From assembly GCA_021735655.1 (NCBI GenBank), contig JAIPGM010000001.1, positions 277,262 to 341,261 on the forward strand: 64,000 nucleotides of DNA. The letters are read 5' to 3'. The position numbers and the translations under genes were made by a program. Source of the DNA: Candidatus Omnitrophota bacterium (GTDB taxonomy: Bacteria > Omnitrophota > Gorgyraeia > Duberdicusellales > 4484-171). The notes below the pieces were generated by a model that saw only the letters and a list, made by a program, of their open reading frames with translations, was not told the DNA's origin and did no database searches. Of this stretch, positions 3,873-46,355 are shown in pieces; the first letter of the stretch is position 1; each line of letters starts with the position of its first letter.

Positions 3873-4625
3873 ATGATTAGGACCATGGAAACTTTATGTT
3901 TTGCGGCTTTGATTTTTGCAATAACATTTGCTTTTACTCCATTAGCTTTAGCTTATGATTTAAGTAAGTATTACCCTTTAAATGAAGGTGATAGTTGGGA
4001 GTATTTAACAAGCGGAATAGGCTACGTTGAGGGTGGAGCAGATAAGGCAGAATTTTCCGATATGATTGAAGTAGATAAAATAGAATCAAAAGAATCTATT
4101 TCCGGTAAAAGGACCATGGTAAAGGTTTCGGGAGCCTTAGAGGAAAAAGAATGTTTGGCTGTAGACTCAGAAGGACTAAAACTGTACAAGTTAATAGATG
4201 GTCCAGGTGGTTATGATATATTTACCCCGCCGTTCATGCAGTTGGCAAATCTTGCAGTTGGAGAGAGTAAAACTTTCTTAAGCAATGCAATCGGGTATGG
4301 TGATCGCTCAAGTGAAGGAGCCAGACTGAATACAAATACGATAACATTGGAATCAGTGGAAAGAGTAGAAGTTCCCGCAGGATTATTTGATGATTGCCTT
4401 AAATTTACGTCGACGGGTGAAAGAGCCTACGCAGATGGCAATTATGAAAATATTGAGTCTACCGTTTGGCTTGCTTTAGGGGTAGGTGTAGTTAAGGCTG
4501 ATTATATTTATATCGAACATGATTTTTCTTCAGGCGAGGATAGTACTACTACCAACAAGCGAAATTTGGTTTCAGCAAAGGTAAATGGTCAACAAATCGG
4601 AACTCCAAAGGAAAGTCAAGAATAA
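3873..4625 (+). CDS. hypothetical secreted protein (signal peptide, cleavage near ALA-YD)
   Basis: ATG at 3873 preceded by RBS AAGGGAGGTG. The ORF track begins at GTG 3864. Hydrophobic N-terminus. No recognisable family. Confidence 0.4.
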   Translation: MIRTMETLCFAALIFAITFAFTPLALAYDLSKYYPLNEGDSWEYLTSGIGYVEGGADKAEFSDMIEVDKIESKESISGKRTMVKVSGALEEKECLAVDSEGLKLYKLIDGPGGYDIFTPPFMQLANLAVGESKTFLSNAIGYGDRSSEGARLNTNTITLESVERVEVPAGLFDDCLKFTSTGERAYADGNYENIESTVWLALGVGVVKADYIYIEHDFSSGEDSTTTNKRNLVSAKVNGQQIGTPKESQE

Positions 4626-4725
4626 TAAGGCCAGCGTGCAAGTTTTAGCTAATGAAACTTGATAATTTTTTTATTGCAGTTTCATAAATCCTTCTATACG
4701 ATTCAAATTCAATATTACAATTTAT

Positions 4726-4734
4726 GGGGGGGGG
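4726..4734. repeat. G9 homopolymer in the intergenic region upstream of the GT4 gene
   Basis: Direct read: tttatggggggggg ttaatcc. This is the longest G run in the window. It lies ~120 nt upstream of ATG 4856. Confidence 0.9.
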
Positions 4735-4855
4735 TTAATCCGATCAACATGTGAAGTTCCTCATGAATTGCAGTCTTATCAAAATACGCATAAACATAAA
4801 ATACGAATTAATAAAGATGTTAAGCTATATATAGTTGATAGTTGTAGGGCGAAAA

Positions 4856-5959
4856 ATGAAAAAAATTCTGGTTTTTAACGCTGGAGCTTATATCTACGGA
4901 GCAGAAAGAGGGTTAATTAATTTTATTAGAACTTTGTCTGATAAATTTGAAATAACGGTAGTCTTGCCTTCCCAAGGCCCCCTTTCTAAAAAAATCGAAA
5001 AATTAAATGTATCTTTAAAAATATTTCCGATACCGATCCTTAAAATCTCGCTTTCACCGCTATATTATATTTTTTTTCCTTTTCATTTTATTTTTTCCGT
5101 TATTTATTTTAGCATTTATGCAATCCGCAAAGATATTGAAATAATTTGTAGTAATTCTTTACTTTTAGTTTTTCCGGCTATTGTTGCTAAATTTACCAAA
5201 AAAAGACATATCTGGTATTTAAGAGAGTTTCTGCCTTCTAGTTTTTTGAATAAAGCTCTAGGGGCATTCATTATCAGATTTTCAAACCAAATAATATGTC
5301 AATCTCAAGCTATTAGGGAAGCCTTGCTTGGCAAAGAAAGGGGCATTATTATTTATGAACCTTTAAATGCTACGGACTATAAAATCTACAAATCAGATCT
5401 TGCAAGAAGTGAGCTAAATATCCCTATAAAATCAACGGTTATTTCAATAATTTCTCGAGTGCATCCTTCTAAGGGACAGTATGAATTTATAGTTGATATT
5501 AAAAGGACATTAAAGAAAAATCCCAACATCCTTTTGGTTATCGCCGGTGATATATCGCCGAACAATTTAAGAAATCGTTTATATAAAGCAAAAATAGAAA
5601 AATTGATAGAGGGGGATACTCTAAAAAATGTAGTCCTTTTAGGTTTTAGAGATGATGTTGATAGGATACTTTCTTTAAGCAATATTTGCGTTTTTCCTTT
5701 TAAAAGAAAAGAACCGTTTGGAATTTCTGTAGCTGAAAGTTTAACTTTTGGTAAAATAACTTTTTTTCCTCAGGTTGGAGGTCTAAAAGAAGTACGTGAT
5801 ATCTTTGGTCGGGGAAACGATTTTAGTATAGATAGGATTTGTGAGATAGCCTCAAACTTTGAACCAGCACGAGTAGAAAAGCTCCAAGAATTATATATCC
5901 CTGAAGAGCTTTCTATCGCGACATACAAAAATAAACTTATTCCTATTTTTGAAAATTAA
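4856..5959 (+). CDS. glycosyltransferase, GT4/GT1-fold family
   Basis: MKKILVFNAGAYIYGAERG N-terminus and a C-terminal Rossmann-like domain. Likely start ATG 4856 inside track ORF 4835..5959. Confidence 0.55.
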   Translation: MKKILVFNAGAYIYGAERGLINFIRTLSDKFEITVVLPSQGPLSKKIEKLNVSLKIFPIPILKISLSPLYYIFFPFHFIFSVIYFSIYAIRKDIEIICSNSLLLVFPAIVAKFTKKRHIWYLREFLPSSFLNKALGAFIIRFSNQIICQSQAIREALLGKERGIIIYEPLNATDYKIYKSDLARSELNIPIKSTVISIISRVHPSKGQYEFIVDIKRTLKKNPNILLVIAGDISPNNLRNRLYKAKIEKLIEGDTLKNVVLLGFRDDVDRILSLSNICVFPFKRKEPFGISVAESLTFGKITFFPQVGGLKEVRDIFGRGNDFSIDRICEIASNFEPARVEKLQELYIPEELSIATYKNKLIPIFEN

Positions 5960-33910: not shown

Positions 33911-34572
33911 ATTTATTAGTAGTTGATGCCAGTTCTGAGAATATCTCACTAGCTATAAAATATAAAGGAAAGCTAGTGGCTGATTTTAATCGAAAGAAAC
34001 GCTTTGGGGCGTCTTTACTTATTCAGCAGATTGACAGGCAGTTAAGTAAGAATAAGCTAAGTCTAAAGTCAATGGATGCTTTTGTAGTTGGCAGTGGCCC
34101 AGGTTCTTTTACTGGCCTTCGGATATCCTTTAGCGTAATTAAAGCCTTTATGTTGGTAACTAAAAAACCGACTATCGAGGTGGGAAGTTCTTATTCTTTA
34201 GCTTATGCTTTGAGGAATAAGTCTAGCAAAATAGCGGTTATTTCCGATGCCCGGCGAGGTTTAATCTACGGAGTTTGTTTTAAGTCTAGATTGGGAGTTT
34301 TAAGGAAAGAGGCTAAAGAAAAACTTTACAAACTAGAGGAGTTTATCAAGAACAAAGAGGATTATCTTTTTTGTACCTATGATAAAGATCTAAGAGATCA
34401 GGTTTCCAATTTAAATAAAAAGATTGGGTTTTATGATAAAGATTTATACCCTAAGGCTCGGGATTTGCTACTTGAGGCTGAGCTGTGTTATAATCAAGGT
34501 AAGTTTACCACAATTGACAAGTTAAAGCCTTTATATCTACATCCAAAAACATGCCAAATCCAAAAAAAATAA
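33907..34572 (+). CDS. tsaB: tRNA t6A37 biosynthesis protein TsaB
   Basis: YeaZ-like ASKHA fold. Adjacent to and coupled with tsaE. Confidence 0.7.
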   Translation: MNLLVVDASSENISLAIKYKGKLVADFNRKKRFGASLLIQQIDRQLSKNKLSLKSMDAFVVGSGPGSFTGLRISFSVIKAFMLVTKKPTIEVGSSYSLAYALRNKSSKIAVISDARRGLIYGVCFKSRLGVLRKEAKEKLYKLEEFIKNKEDYLFCTYDKDLRDQVSNLNKKIGFYDKDLYPKARDLLLEAELCYNQGKFTTIDKLKPLYLHPKTCQIQKK

Positions 34573-35675
34573 TTCGTCCGCTTTGGATTGAAGTTGATTT
34601 AGCGGCTTTAAGTAGTAACTTTAAAGCAATCAAAGCTTACCTTGAGCCAAAAACTAAGATAATTGCAACTATCAAGCAGTCTGCCTATGGGCATGGTCTT
34701 GTTCCAGTAGCCAAACAGTTAAAAAAAGACGGCGTAGATATTTTTGGTGTTGGCAGTATTGAGGAAGCCCTGGCTTTGCGTGAGGCTGGTTTTGATTCCC
34801 CGGTGATTGTTTTAACGGCAGTCTTAAGTAATTTTTGTAATTTATTTTTAGAACACAAGGTTATTCCGACAATAGTCGATTTAGAATTTGCTAAAAAATT
34901 AAATCGTTTGGCTAAAAAGATGGGTCGTAAAGTAGCCGTTCATGTAAAGGTTGATACCGGGATGGGTCGTTTAGGGTTTCATTATAAACAAGCTGACCAA
35001 TTTGTCAGGGAGTTAGCTAAACTTAAAAATATAATTCTTGAGGGTATTTATACCCATTTCCCGGCCGCTGACAGTGACCCTGGTTTTACTCAGTATCAGA
35101 TAGATGCTTTTAATGGTTTTATCGAGCAGTTAAAAACCGAAGGTATATCATTTAAATATCAACATTGCGCTAACAGTATTGGGTTATTGCGTTACAGTCA
35201 CACTTATTTTAATATGGTTCGTCCCGGGCTCATTCTTTATGGGGTTAAACCTCAGGCTGAGGTAGATATCGGAATTAAACCGGTATTAAGTTTAAAGTCA
35301 AGGATTGTCTTTATTAAACAGGTTAAAAAAGGCTCAGGAGTTAGTTACGGAAGAACCTACATAGCTAAGAATAACCGCAATATCGCTACGGTGGCGGTTG
35401 GCTACGCTGATGGTTATCCTTGGTCTTTGTCTAACAAGTCTAAAGTTTTAATTAAGGGTAAATTTTTCGAGTTAGTCGGTAGAGTTTGCATGGATCATAT
35501 TATGATAGACTTAAAAGGTAGAAGCGATATTAAGGTTGGTGAAGAAGTAATTTTAATTGGTGAAAGCAAAACTAAGAAAATATTGGCTGAAGACTTAGCT
35601 GAACTGGCTCAAACTATTCCCTATGAAATTGTAAGTAGACTTTCCGAGAGAATACCTCGAATTTACAAGAAGTAG
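34551..35675 (+). CDS. alr: alanine racemase
   Basis: PLP-Lys motif IIATIKQSAYGHG. C-terminal beta domain. Confidence 0.85.
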   Translation: MPNPKKIIRPLWIEVDLAALSSNFKAIKAYLEPKTKIIATIKQSAYGHGLVPVAKQLKKDGVDIFGVGSIEEALALREAGFDSPVIVLTAVLSNFCNLFLEHKVIPTIVDLEFAKKLNRLAKKMGRKVAVHVKVDTGMGRLGFHYKQADQFVRELAKLKNIILEGIYTHFPAADSDPGFTQYQIDAFNGFIEQLKTEGISFKYQHCANSIGLLRYSHTYFNMVRPGLILYGVKPQAEVDIGIKPVLSLKSRIVFIKQVKKGSGVSYGRTYIAKNNRNIATVAVGYADGYPWSLSNKSKVLIKGKFFELVGRVCMDHIMIDLKGRSDIKVGEEVILIGESKTKKILAEDLAELAQTIPYEIVSRLSERIPRIYKK

Positions 35676-35684
35676 AAATTTCTT

Positions 35685-36269
35685 TTAAGCCCCGGTGTGA
35701 TAGATATAAAATGCTTCATCATTGCCAACAACTGGATGTATGCGAAAGGTTCCATTAGTTAGAATACCATTATCAAGGGTATCGTCAATTTTCTGTAATG
35801 GTTCAGCTTTTGGTGCACAAAAAACACCTGGCGTAGGAAAGCAATGGTTAGAAATTAAAATACTAAGCTCATAAGGAGCTCCATCTGCTTCGAGATCATA
35901 ACAATAAAGAGCATAAATTCCTCCCCAGGGATGCATGACCATACTACCGTCTAAGTATGGACCGTCCCAACCTCTAATCGTTGCACCAGAGGTTGCATTA
36001 ACCAAAGTAGAACTATATACCGGTACCCATTCTGTTTCATCTACGAAACCATCGGCGGGGTCATCGTCGGGAAATTCTTCTAATGGCCATTGAGCGGTAT
36101 CAGCGTAATGGGATAAGATAGCAGTCTTGGTAGCTTTAATATCAGCTATAGCCCGAGTGACTTTAGCCTTCTCAATAGCCCTGAAAGCATTAGGAGCAAT
36201 GATTGCCGCTAGAATTGCAATGATAGCAATGACTACGATAAGTTCGATTAGAGTGAATGATTTTTTCAT
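35685..36269 (-). CDS. GspG/PulG-like pseudopilin (prepilin-type N-terminal methylation domain)
   Basis: MKKSFTLIELIVVIAIIAILAAI class III signal. GspG-like WDGPY and HPWGG motifs. Confidence 0.75.
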   Translation of the reverse strand: MKKSFTLIELIVVIAIIAILAAIIAPNAFRAIEKAKVTRAIADIKATKTAILSHYADTAQWPLEEFPDDDPADGFVDETEWVPVYSSTLVNATSGATIRGWDGPYLDGSMVMHPWGGIYALYCYDLEADGAPYELSILISNHCFPTPGVFCAPKAEPLQKIDDTLDNGILTNGTFRIHPVVGNDEAFYIYHTGA

Positions 36270-36289
36270 AAAAAATTTCCTTTTGAATA

Positions 36290-36298
36290 ATTATATCA
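36290..36298 (-). promoter_or_regulatory. extended -10 element (TGATATAAT) upstream of the pseudopilin gene 35685..36269
   Basis: The minus-strand sequence reads TGATATAAT and is followed by RBS AAGGAA. It is duplicated upstream of the paralog. Confidence 0.4.
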
Positions 36299-36346
36299 CA
36301 ACAGGAAGAGGTAATTTAATAGGGTAATTTGCTGTTTGCCTAAATA

Positions 36347-36973
36347 TTATGGAGTATAGCGATCGTCATAATCCCAAAATAATATCCAGTGAATATCAGA
36401 CATTGACCCTCCGGCTGATCCGCGAACATTACCGGTATTGAGCGGCCAATCTTCGTCATCATCCACCATAGTGTCTAACTTTTTAGCAGCACTCTGTGGC
36501 ATTCGACAGGTACTAGGATTAATAACGCCTTCAACGTAAGGATAACAATAATTATCTATTTCTAAAACTAATTCTTCTATGCCATTTACCGGATCGCTAT
36601 AATCTTGCCAACAAGTAAAAGCATATTGGCCTCCCCAAGGATGCATTCCGGGAGTCTTTTCCACATAAGGTCCATCCCAGCCTGGCCAGGTTGCTGGTGC
36701 CCAATGCAGAGTAATATTGAGAGGATTTGTGTCTAAAGGGTTTTGACCTGGTAACAAGTGCATTTGCGTACCAGTGTAGCCATCCATAACTTTACGTCCA
36801 GTATCAGCATAAAGAGCACCAACTGAGGTTTTAAGAACTCTGGAATCAGCAATTACTCTGGCAACTTTGGCTTTTTCAATGGCCTTAAAGGCATTAGGAG
36901 CGATAATTGCTGCAAGGATAGCAATGATAGCAATGACTACGATAAGTTCGATTAGAGTGAATGATTTTTTCAT
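36347..36973 (-). CDS. GspG/PulG-like pseudopilin paralog
   Basis: The first 30 aa are identical to the neighbour. WDGPY and HPWGG motifs. C-terminal domain is divergent. Confidence 0.75.
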   Translation of the reverse strand: MKKSFTLIELIVVIAIIAILAAIIAPNAFKAIEKAKVARVIADSRVLKTSVGALYADTGRKVMDGYTGTQMHLLPGQNPLDTNPLNITLHWAPATWPGWDGPYVEKTPGMHPWGGQYAFTCWQDYSDPVNGIEELVLEIDNYCYPYVEGVINPSTCRMPQSAAKKLDTMVDDDEDWPLNTGNVRGSAGGSMSDIHWILFWDYDDRYTP

Positions 36974-36993
36974 AAAAAATCTCCTTTTGAATA

Positions 36994-37002
36994 ATTATAT
37001 CA
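36994..37002 (-). promoter_or_regulatory. extended -10 element (TGATATAAT) upstream of the pseudopilin gene 36347..36973
   Basis: Same motif and spacing as the copy at 36290-36298. Followed by RBS AAGGAG. Confidence 0.4.
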
Positions 37003-37028
37003 CGATAAGATGGATTTAATAGTGTAAT

Positions 37029-38114
37029 TTACCTTATTAGGCGCAATCCGGTTACGCCGATAGTTAAAAAGAATAGTGGCGCCATCCAAGGGCTAATCAT
37101 TGGCAGAATAATGCCTGATTTTCCTAAAGCAACGCTAAATGAAGAGATAAAGTAGTAGATAAAGATAAAGATAAACCCTACCCCCAAGGAAGTAAGGCCA
37201 ACCTTACGTTTTTTAATTTCTAGAGCAAAGGGTAGAATTCCGATAACTAAGAAGAAATGGGAGAAAGGCTCGACTAATTTTTGGTTATAGTGAATGATTA
37301 ATTCTTTTAGTTTTTCTTGTGAGCCGATTTTTTTTAACTGATCTATTTCACGTTGTAAATCATTGAGAGGAGTGAATTCCAGGAGAATACTTTTTTTAAG
37401 TAGAAGTTCCTGAGGGTTTTCAGCTAAGGGAATAGGCTTTTTGTCCAAGTTTTGGCTGTTGATGCTTTTACCATAGCGGTCAAAGGTATTTTCTTTAACT
37501 AATGTAGCGGTCCACTGTTCATTTTTATAGTAGATAGTTTTACAGATTATTTCTTTTATAAAGTCACCTTCTTTGTCTTCTTGAAAGATTGCAACATCAG
37601 TTAAGATTTTTTCACTTGGTGAAAATTCCCGGGCAAAGAAAATCATTCCACCTGAGGAGAACTTAAAGTTTCGCTCAAGCGAAGATCCGGAGAGGTCTTT
37701 TTTTATGAAGTTTCTTTTAATTTCTTCAACTTCTCTTTGAGATTTAATCAGTACTTTTTCTTGAAGGTAGAAGGCGCCAGAGGAGACAACAATTGAAAAC
37801 AAAATCAGCGGCAAAGACAGGGACATAATGCTTACTCCGGCTGAGCGCATTCCGGCAATTTCGTTACCCCGATTGAGTTCCCCTAAGGTATAAAGCATAC
37901 TGATCAGGAGTGCAAAAGGGCTTACCCATTTGAAGATCCAAGGAATCATACTTAGATAATAACGCACGAGCATTAGAAATGGTATTTTTGATTTTAGGAT
38001 ATCGGCAAGATTACTGAAGGTATCAATGACAAAGAAAAGACCGATAAATATGGCTAGGATAGAAATATATCCTAAAACAGCACTTTTTAAAGTATATTTA
38101 TCGAGAATGCGCAT
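37029..38114 (-). CDS. lptG: LPS export ABC permease (YjgP/YjgQ family)
   Basis: 6-TM permease with a periplasmic beta-jellyroll domain. Second gene of the lptFG pair. Confidence 0.7.
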   Translation of the reverse strand: MRILDKYTLKSAVLGYISILAIFIGLFFVIDTFSNLADILKSKIPFLMLVRYYLSMIPWIFKWVSPFALLISMLYTLGELNRGNEIAGMRSAGVSIMSLSLPLILFSIVVSSGAFYLQEKVLIKSQREVEEIKRNFIKKDLSGSSLERNFKFSSGGMIFFAREFSPSEKILTDVAIFQEDKEGDFIKEIICKTIYYKNEQWTATLVKENTFDRYGKSINSQNLDKKPIPLAENPQELLLKKSILLEFTPLNDLQREIDQLKKIGSQEKLKELIIHYNQKLVEPFSHFFLVIGILPFALEIKKRKVGLTSLGVGFIFIFIYYFISSFSVALGKSGIILPMISPWMAPLFFLTIGVTGLRLIR

Positions 38115-39186
38115 ACTTATAGATAAGAGAAACTCCTAAAAGCATAATTATAAAACTGGATAGCCAAATTCCGATCCAAGGGGTTACTATTTGACGTTCG
38201 ATTAAGGCTTTACCTAGTATTGAAAGCAGGTAGTAGGTTAGTGCACCTAAACAGGCAATACCGAAGTTAATCGATTTTTCCCGGTGGCGTACAACTAGAG
38301 ATACTCCGAAACCTAAGATAGTGAAGGCAATGATCGAGAAGGATAGATTTATCCTTTCGTGAAATTCAGTCAGAAAATCGGTCGTTTCTATGCCTTTTTG
38401 CCGGTATTGTTTAATCTTACTGAGTAGCTCTTCTATTCTCATGTCTGAAGGTTTCTTTTCGGTTTTAGTCGGTTTTTCTTTTTCAATCGGGATATTTTTA
38501 AAGAAGATTTTAAATTCACCACGTACATCACGTTTGCCGGCGGAGTCGATGTCATGATAATAGACATCTTCCAGTTTCATTTTTAGCACGTCTTTCTCTA
38601 CGATGAACTCTCCTTGTTTAGCTACGATCATTGTGGTCGCTTTTTTATTTTCCTTATCGAGCATATAAATTATGACATTTTTTAATTTATTTTCTTGCTT
38701 ATCGGATACATAGATGACATGATTTTCGAAATGCTCTAAAAAGACCCCCGGCTCAATAAAGGCCGATATATTTTTCATAAGTATTTTTTTTACATTATGG
38801 TAGCGGTAGGTAAGTTGAGGCACTACCTTATCATTTAGAATAAATAGTAGCAATGCGAAGATTGTTCCAATAATCAGAAAAATGTGTAGTATTTTAAAAG
38901 TTGAGACCCCGGCTACTCGCATGGCAATTACTTCATTGTCGGCGATTAATCGGCCCATAGATAGGAGTACACCCATGAAGAATGCTAATGGTAGGGTGTA
39001 GCGCATGAGCGGCGGGAAGGCAAATGACAACAAAGTAAAGGCGTCTTTAATATTAACGCCTTTACGAACAATCATATCTGAGAGATCAATCAGTTTGCCC
39101 ATCAACAGCACGGTGCTTAAAATAAGAAGCGAGAAGATAAAAACAGTAAAGAAATCTTTAATGATGTAGCTGCGGATTATTTTCAT
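38098..39186 (-). CDS. lptF: LPS export ABC permease (YjgP/YjgQ family)
   Basis: Same family. First gene of the pair. Overlaps lptG. Confidence 0.7.
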   Translation of the reverse strand: MKIIRSYIIKDFFTVFIFSLLILSTVLLMGKLIDLSDMIVRKGVNIKDAFTLLSFAFPPLMRYTLPLAFFMGVLLSMGRLIADNEVIAMRVAGVSTFKILHIFLIIGTIFALLLFILNDKVVPQLTYRYHNVKKILMKNISAFIEPGVFLEHFENHVIYVSDKQENKLKNVIIYMLDKENKKATTMIVAKQGEFIVEKDVLKMKLEDVYYHDIDSAGKRDVRGEFKIFFKNIPIEKEKPTKTEKKPSDMRIEELLSKIKQYRQKGIETTDFLTEFHERINLSFSIIAFTILGFGVSLVVRHREKSINFGIACLGALTYYLLSILGKALIERQIVTPWIGIWLSSFIIMLLGVSLIYKYAHSR

Positions 39187-45753: not shown

Positions 45754-45806
45754 ATAATTTTCAAAAAAAATCTTTACATAAGAGGCATTAATGATAGACT
45801 AAAATT

Positions 45807-46355
45807 ATGAGAGAAAAGGCGTTTACTTTAATCGAATTAGTAGTGGTTATTGCTATTATTGCCATCCTTGCTTCTATTGTCGCTCCTAATGCTTTTAGGT
45901 CAATCGAGAAGTCAAAGGTCGCTCGAGCAGTAAGCGACATAAAAACTCTGCAAGGAGCCGCAAGTAATTATTATGTGTCCACTAATAAACGGGCGCCGAC
46001 CTACATGATGGAGGATTCTACAACTTACCTTAACAATCCCTATATAACTGATTCGGGAGATGCCGGTTGGAATGGTGCTTATCTTGAACAGTGGCCCGCA
46101 CACCCTTGGGGAGGTAGCTACGGCTGGATTCAGAACTATGCTTGGGACGGAGACGGTTCTTTAAATGATGGTATTGTTGTCATGGATGATGACCGGCCGG
46201 GAATGGGAGTTGCGGATAACCAGGGACAAGTTCCTCAAAAAGCACTGATAAAAATTTCTGAGATTTTAGATGACGGCACTCTTACCAGTGGAACAGTCCA
46301 GTCACCAATCAGCGGTGAAGCTGGAACCTTAGGTGCTCTGACTTTTCATAATTGA
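45807..46355 (+). CDS. GspG/PulG-like pseudopilin paralog (third copy)
   Basis: MREKAFTLIELVVVIAIIAILA; GWNGAYL and HPWGG motifs. Confidence 0.7.
   Translation: MREKAFTLIELVVVIAIIAILASIVAPNAFRSIEKSKVARAVSDIKTLQGAASNYYVSTNKRAPTYMMEDSTTYLNNPYITDSGDAGWNGAYLEQWPAHPWGGSYGWIQNYAWDGDGSLNDGIVVMDDDRPGMGVADNQGQVPQKALIKISEILDDGTLTSGTVQSPISGEAGTLGALTFHN

Follow-up and report, generated by a model that had tools for sequence, protein, structure and literature searches.

In a 64-kb stretch (the window) from a Candidatus Omnitrophota metagenome-assembled genome (MAG) with a 341-kb contig, two genes for type IV pilin-like proteins stand in tandem on the minus strand and share a nearly identical segment around their start codons. 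These genes, here named A and B, are united by that short 5' block, while the remainder of each groups with orthologues in other genomes. The best explanation, and one that we consider likely, is a short gene-conversion tract between neighbouring pilin-like genes that diverged long ago. A third pilin-like gene in the window, paralogue C, is not homogenised with either of them. Coordinates of all features are given in Table 1.

A short 5' block with a sharp 3' boundary

The block shared by A and B is 83 nt long with one mismatch between its copies, and no match of this kind appeared in 100 shuffles of the window (0.00 expected). It contains GTGATATAAT, which includes an extended -10 element (TGnTATAAT), followed by the ribosome-binding site (RBS) AAAAGGA, the ATG, and codons 1-17. 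It lies within a wider repeat of 166 nt with 85% identity (36141-36306 versus 36845-37010), in direct orientation and with a spacing of 704 nt. The original prediction, made from the letters of the window, had described a near-identical block spanning the start codon of two minus-strand genes, and both the block and the two open reading frames (ORFs) are as it described them. Its account of what the shared region covers was right for the extended -10, the RBS, and the early codons, but it reached too far downstream: nucleotide near-identity ends after codon 17, and the residues up to position 29 (MKKS...APNAF) use different codons from codon 18 onward.

The distribution of differences between A and B was strongly uneven. 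Across 165 gap-free aligned positions the genes differ at 26, of which 25 fall in the last 82, and none of 100,000 permutations produced 83 nt in a row with one mismatch or fewer (P < 1e-5). Codons 1-17 showed no synonymous differences (0/17), compared with 14 synonymous changes in the 20 amino-acid-identical codons among codons 18-40 (Fisher P = 6.5e-6). The protein sequence is therefore conserved across a boundary at which the nucleotide sequence is not.

Comparison with orthologues places this contrast between lineages as well as within the gene. For 14 early codons that are amino-acid-identical throughout, A or B differs from every orthologue by six to eight synonymous changes, whereas A and B differ from each other at only one, codon 18, just past the block. 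Paralogue C, which was predicted to be conserved in protein but not in nucleotides, follows the same rule; its N-terminal peptide is the same, but of the 54 nucleotides at its start 40 are identical, and against A or B it shows seven synonymous changes among 13 early codons that agree in amino acid. Only A and B, likewise, have the 20-nt leader and its RBS; their orthologues have an extended -10 just 5-6 nt before the ATG or no such promoter. As judged from these alignments, the 5' block sorts by genome, whereas the remainder of A and of B sorts by orthologue. This incongruence is the signature of a 5' end that was replaced, by gene conversion or an equivalent process, after the lineages separated. 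The earlier suggestion of a concerted-evolving pair thus holds for the 5' block.

Upstream of the block, the two genes also share a 17-nt box, AAATTAC[C/A]CTATTAAAT, which is identical at 16 of 17 positions and lies 14-18 nt upstream of the -10 hexamer. The window contains two matches to this box, where 0.40 would be expected, and none beyond the two gene copies. Between box and block is a diverged spacer with a 4-nt indel, and a consensus scan found no good -35 hexamer at A. A partial resemblance to the box was seen at one B orthologue (locus L086), which has a similar CCCTATTGAAT upstream. The pattern CCCTATTnAAT ... CTGTnGTGnTATAATT also occurs upstream of both A and L086, and a further B orthologue, L088, has the -10-proximal CTGTnGTGnTATAATT part. 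This is a weak hint, on which we do not rely, that the module might derive from the B lineage and have been copied from B to A. Codon choices within the block do not decide the direction.

Two subfamilies outside the block

Beyond the shared segment, A and B are distant relatives. Without the first ~45 residues, the two proteins share 29% identity (56 bits). In comparison, the C-terminal domain of A is 58%, 53%, and 47% identical to its counterparts in L001, L003, and L006 (184, 166, and 139 bits), and that of B is 71%, 69%, and 58% identical to those in L086, L088, and L090 (250, 238, and 193 bits). Outside the C-terminal comparison, the B orthologues P0121, P0122, and P0123 have 75%, 73%, and 65% identity to B. 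In whole-database searches, each of A and B ranks behind about 100 other proteins as a match of the other.

The orthologues occur in unrelated settings. A-type genes elsewhere stand alone or beside other pilin-like genes, and B-type genes stand alone, in a triplet, or within a V-type ATPase operon. Since the closer orthologues lie in these unrelated contexts, A and B are members of two old subfamilies that are neighbours only in this genome. We considered conserved B-A synteny and rejected it: A and B orthologues are not neighbours elsewhere, and the gene that follows the B orthologue in L088 scores only 61 bits against A. The V-type ATPase case is the B-clade gene P0123 (65% to B), which is found between the B and D subunit genes at positions 5001-5606 of L090, L091, and L092, in three independent assemblies.

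Similar pairs in other genomes and metagenomes

Homogenised 5' ends are not confined to this window. We made two independent surveys, one of genomes with loci fetched by A and one of metagenomes with loci fetched by B, and counted pairs of family genes with exact in-register 5' runs of at least 50 nt. Such runs were found in 5 of 74 adjacent same-strand pairs in the genome survey and in 8 of 74 in the metagenome survey. Non-adjacent pairs within one genome had them in 1 of 616 cases in the genome survey, a class that was not separated in the metagenome survey, and pairs from different genomes or contigs had them in 10 of 11,245 and 7 of 8,021 cases, respectively. Pooled, the runs occur in 13 of 148 adjacent pairs (~9%) versus 17 of 19,266 pairs between genomes or contigs. 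In these adjacent pairs divergent subunits have gained the same start region, which in the window includes the promoter and may couple expression.

Individual pairs resemble A and B in combining an exact start with divergent C-termini. Pair L012 is identical for 107 nt from the ATG, with unrelated upstream regions and C-termini that are 28% identical, and pair L010 is identical for 95 nt with C-termini at 27%. Tract boundaries vary between pairs, and this variation speaks against a fixed functional nucleotide element. The tracts of the other homogenised pairs begin at the start codon or within the coding sequence. All runs seen were at most 107 nt, below usual assembler k-mer sizes. Since longer tracts would break contigs, the survey probably undercounts.

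Two loci illustrate the range of outcomes. In L100 (the 805-kb contig Ga0209507_1000004, ~3960-5700), three consecutive pilin-like genes have pairwise exact 5' runs of 65-91 nt and C-termini that are 29-35% identical, and on this pattern the locus appears to be a multi-gene case of the same homogenisation. In L088 (JAHKAJ010000006.1, 4351-6232), as in L093 and L094, the B orthologue is the middle member of a pilin-like triplet in which identical 5' runs reach at most 26 nt, so adjacency alone does not guarantee homogenisation.

Origin of the shared segment

The pattern would be produced if non-reciprocal homologous recombination copied the promoter, the RBS leader, and codons 1-17 from one gene onto the other, in a tract of about 85 nt. 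The nearly invariant N-terminal coding segment of the family would supply the nucleotide identity that recombination needs, and for this reason conversion would recur between adjacent paralogues and stop where their sequences diverge. A patchy extension of the tract may reach the box ~60 nt upstream. With the same start signals, signal peptide, and first helix, A and B are probably co-expressed, given that their transcription and translation start signals are identical. Their products would then share one prepilin peptidase and enter a common filament machinery.

Several points weigh against this reading. The case is comparative, built on alignments rather than on a recombination event observed directly. 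The box with 16 of 17 identical positions, lying beyond a diverged spacer and a 4-nt indel, is not explained by one simple tract, and its conservation would need patchy repair, two events, or selection on the box itself. The donor could also be a third copy elsewhere in the genome, of which 64 kb was read. Lastly, once conversion has taken place, selection acting on the promoter and the translation start may contribute to preserving the identity of the block.

A stronger role for selection would dispense with conversion altogether, the block being a cis-regulatory module kept in both copies since an old duplication by purifying selection at the nucleotide level. The block does coincide exactly with the controls of initiation, from the extended -10 through the RBS to the first codons; the upstream box was kept despite its diverged spacer; and 18 family genes have an extended -10 placed 20-24 nt ahead of the ATG. 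However, orthologues and paralogue C encode the same N-terminal peptide with the many synonymous changes described above and with leaders of 5-9 rather than 20 nt, which indicates that this nucleotide sequence is not constrained across the family. Elsewhere, homogenised pairs have tracts that begin at or after the ATG and upstream sequences that are unrelated, and the block gave no signal of RNA structure (folding z-scores -0.49 to +0.60). We regard selection without conversion as very unlikely.

We also think it very unlikely that the pair belongs to a programmed or high-frequency system, in which identical 5' blocks would be substrates for deletion, duplication, or C-terminal swapping that vary the surface of a pilus or pseudopilus. 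Two direct repeats, each 83 nt long and spaced by 704 nt, can in principle recombine, and a 704-bp deletion would leave a chimera with the promoter and 5' end of B on the body of A. The recurrence of homogenised 5' ends in many adjacent pairs suggests that recombination acts repeatedly at this segment, and surface variation would be plausible in Omnitrophota, which are thought to attach to host cells and in which type IVa pilus genes are common (PMC10066038). The architecture of the pair speaks differently. Both A and B are complete, with their own promoter and RBS, and C is also full length with a start codon; no promoterless or 5'-truncated silent copies were found in the 64-kb window that could act as donors. 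Nucleotide similarity between A and B does not extend beyond the first ~166 nt and borders the variable part on one side only, so the variable region cannot be exchanged by flanking homology, and only deletion or duplication is left. No inverted repeats bound the segment, the only inverted repeat being a 15-nt pair 1344 nt apart; no recombinase or invertase gene lies next to the pair; and no G-quadruplex (G4) motif (G3+N1-7 x3) occurs on the minus strand, which carries both genes, of 34001-39000.

The 3' domains also behave as stable lineages, with orthologues that are 47-77% identical in other genomes. We looked for shuffling between the middle sub-region (before the WDGPY motif) and the end sub-region (after HPWGG) and found none, as within each of A and B the two sub-regions have their best matches in one clade. 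Public collections yielded no variants and no genome of the same species: when 185,579 species-representative genomes were scanned for an exact 53-nt match, and the JGI metagenomes for an exact 34-nt match, 0 further copies of the block emerged, in collections that do not hold the source genome. The original prediction had called the pair cassette-like and proposed recombinational pilin variation, a proposal that these results do not support. There is a similarly slim chance that 5' modules are maintained as recombination substrates in host-attached, ultra-small Omnitrophota, where arrays of pilin-like genes would undergo deletion, duplication, or re-pairing of promoters with different C-terminal domains at high frequency; if true, this would give population-level variation of the filament surface without silent cassettes.

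A recent tandem duplication followed by very fast 3' divergence under diversifying selection would account for the tandem layout, for the 704-nt period, and for homology that starts at the same upstream box in both genes, which is the arrangement expected of duplication. Codons 18-40, however, are near synonymous saturation despite conserved amino acids, which points to an ancient divergence that protein-level selection did not drive, and each 3' domain is far closer to its orthologues in other genomes than to its neighbour. The earlier description of the genes as recently duplicated does not survive this comparison of codons and C-terminal domains, and we consider a duplication of that kind highly improbable. 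That the repeat was created or homogenised by metagenome assembly or binning is a next to negligible concern, even though the window comes from a MAG and repeats are well known to cause assembly errors, as a chimeric join leaves one repeat copy rather than two with different intact ORFs, 83 nt is shorter than typical reads and maximum k-mers, and the same pattern appears in independent assemblies from NCBI, ENA, and JGI.

Comparison with known systems

Gene conversion is our preferred account, and it calls for no new mechanism, as conversion between tandem paralogues is well known. The genes themselves were already annotated. On this account the two paralogues evolve in concert as an ordinary consequence of being related neighbours that recombine, and nothing in the data points to a switching system. 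Gene conversion between tufA and tufB in enterobacteria is a comparable case. Two pilin systems share some features with the pair. In Neisseria, one expressed pilE locus is accompanied by promoterless, 5'-truncated silent pilS copies, the variable 3' part is replaced, and a G4-forming sequence upstream of pilE is needed. The Omnitrophota pair is similar in belonging to the type IV pilin family, in having a constant N-terminus and a variable C-terminal domain, and in the involvement of gene conversion, but here it is the constant 5' part that would be converted, both genes are complete and have promoters, and the G4 motif is lacking. In Moraxella, tfpQ and tfpI are switched through inverted repeats by a site-specific invertase, with a single promoter. 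The likeness lies in two pilin 3' domains with one common 5' constant region, whereas the window has direct repeats, a promoter for each gene, and no nearby invertase gene.

The nearest described analogue is recombination at a conserved segment in clusters of tandem paralogues, as in the lpl lipoprotein cluster of Staphylococcus aureus. There a conserved segment in tandem paralogues is the recombination site and the flanking parts are incongruent in phylogeny (Tsuru & Kobayashi 2008, PMC2568036). The systems share a conserved nucleotide segment and incongruent parts, which here are the 5' block and the 3' bodies of A and B. They differ in that the segment here is at the extreme 5' end and includes the promoter, that only two genes are involved, that our comparison is between species rather than among many strains of one species, and that no shuffling of variable parts is seen here.

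These results bear on how such genes are annotated and compared. High 5' nucleotide identity between adjacent Omnitrophota pilin-like genes should not be equated with recent duplication, and trees drawn from N-terminal segments, or family sizes counted from them, will be misleading. In this expanded family the invariant N-terminal segment would act as a recurrent hotspot of local conversion.

Predicted gene products

A and B are type IV pilin-like filament subunits related to GspG. A, B, and C all match the N-terminal methylation profiles PF07963 (28.3, 28.1, and 30.9 bits; cut-off 21.2) and TIGR02532 (22.8, 22.5, and 29.5 bits; cut-off 16.3), and all three have the prepilin N-terminal motif of a short basic leader followed by F-T-L-I-E with Glu at +5. 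The best NCBIfam model for each is TIGR01710, the GspG equivalog, at 52.5, 37.7, and 62.3 bits, respectively, which is below the equivalog cut-off of 88.85 bits. For the T2SSG profile PF08334 (cut-off 21), A is borderline at 21.9 bits, C passes at 27.8, and B has no match. Both GspG-type motifs that were predicted to be kept, WDGPY and HPWGG, are present, and in A they align to PF08334. The resemblance to GspG (PulG/EpsG) thus includes the best-scoring model and the W-x-G-P-Y ... P-W-G region of A. However, A, B, and C are 50-70 residues longer than GspG and are scattered among housekeeping genes instead of lying in a gsp operon with GspD/E/F and minor pseudopilins.

The structure predicted for A, the only protein modelled, agrees with this assignment. 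The AlphaFold 2 model has a mean predicted local distance difference test score of 88.2 and a predicted template modelling (TM) score of 0.83, and it places a helix at residues 7-58 before beta strands, as in the pilin fold. In a Foldseek search of the PDB with this model, the top 19 matches were all type IV pilins or pseudopilins, at weak E-values of ~1e-3. The best were the Clostridioides difficile type IV pilins PilA1 and PilW, followed by EpsG/GspG with probabilities of 0.75-0.87 and TM scores of 0.51-0.57 normalised to the target.

The family is large. Searches with A and B retrieved 1,495 and 1,684 database proteins, respectively, at E <= 1e-3. Two Omnitrophota MAGs had about 11 pilin-like loci each, and Victivallales had many, in agreement with the expectation that pilin-like genes are expanded in Omnitrophota and in genomes of the Planctomycetes-Verrucomicrobia-Chlamydiae type.

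Two further features of the proteins stand out. The residue at -1 of the predicted cleavage site, canonically Gly, is Ser in A and B (codons 36258-36260 and 36962-36964) and Ala in C; of the 146 homologues collected, 72 have Ser at this site, 44 have Gly, and 11 have Ala, with a leader mostly of four residues (MKKS). This suggests that the prepilin peptidase of the lineage has a relaxed or shifted specificity at -1. Three cysteines are present in A (C122, C143, C150) and in B (C120, C143, C156) and absent from C. The cysteine of a (N/D)xC(F/Y)P motif hardly varies across the family, nor does a second one in the alignment centred on B, which suggests a disulfide in the C-terminal domain.

Genomic context and start signals

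B is the upstream member of the tandem and directly follows a pair of LptF/G-type permease genes, the nearer of which is at 37029..38114, and A is the downstream member, convergent with an alanine racemase-like gene. Other neighbours are housekeeping genes, with no gsp operon, and GenBank names both products 'prepilin-type N-terminal cleavage/methylation domain-containing protein' (MCF7907403.1 and MCF7907404.1). The 20 large ORFs scanned in the window were all housekeeping. No secretin, assembly ATPase, or platform protein (GspD/E/F, PilB/C/Q) and no prepilin peptidase was found among these 20 and the listed window ORFs, which are part of the ORFs in the window. The original statement that GspD/E/F and PilB/C/Q are lacking from the window stands for this scanned and listed set. 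Since type IVa pilus genes are reported to be common in Omnitrophota (PMC10066038), the partner filament machinery is probably encoded outside the window.

Table 1. Coordinates of the pilin-like genes and associated features in the window
Feature	Position	Strand	Description	Basis
Gene A	35685..36269	minus	type IV pilin-like (GspG-related), 194 aa; MCF7907403.1; 'A clade'	ORF, profile matches
Gene B	36347..36973	minus	type IV pilin-like, 208 aa; MCF7907404.1; 'B clade'	ORF, profile matches
Paralogue C	45807..46355	plus	pilin-like, 182 aa; not homogenised with A or B	ORF, profiles, codon comparison
Homogenised 5' block at A	36217..36299	minus	extended -10, short leader with RBS, ATG, codons 1-17	sequence match
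Homogenised 5' block at B	36921..37003	minus	one mismatch (A/G) 9 nt before ATG
Codons 18-43 of A	36141..36216	minus	protein conserved with B; 14/20 amino-acid-identical codons synonymously changed; old divergence outside tract
Extended -10 TGATATAAT of A	36290..36298	minus	20 nt before ATG; AAAAGGA RBS at 36278-36284	read from sequence; putative promoter
Extended -10 TGATATAAT of B	36994..37002	minus	AAAAGGA RBS at 36982-36988	read from sequence; putative promoter
Upstream box AAATTACCCTATTAAAT of A	36314..36330	minus	includes weak -35-like TTAAAT, 18 nt before -10 hexamer
Upstream box AAATTACACTATTAAAT of B	37014..37030	minus	overlaps stop codon of permease gene 37029..38114; spacer to -10 hexamer 4 nt shorter than at A

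The antisense strand at the block of A carries an ORF of 66 amino acids (36127-36327, plus strand). We rejected it as a gene and consider it probably spurious, as it reads the codons of the hydrophobic helix in reverse and lacks supporting evidence. The block was likewise rejected as a known RNA; its single Rfam match, to rli48, scored 21 bits against a gathering score of 100 (E = 0.95). The start codon lies inside a small palindrome, UUUUUU-AUG-AAAAAA (36262-36276 and 36966-36980, minus strand), for which a weak A-U hairpin is conceivable, and folding energies there were no better than those of shuffled controls.

The spacing between the extended -10 and the ATG is bimodal among family genes. 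In 19 of 172 genes (e.g., L001, L086, L088, and L019), an extended -10 (TGnTAnnnT) ends 5-9 nt before the ATG without a Shine-Dalgarno sequence, and paralogue C has TGATAGACT at ~45792-45800, 6 nt before its ATG. A second peak lies at 20-24 nt with a Shine-Dalgarno sequence and comprises 18 genes, including A and B. The short spacing, as read from the sequences, implies leaderless mRNAs for the genes of the first group.

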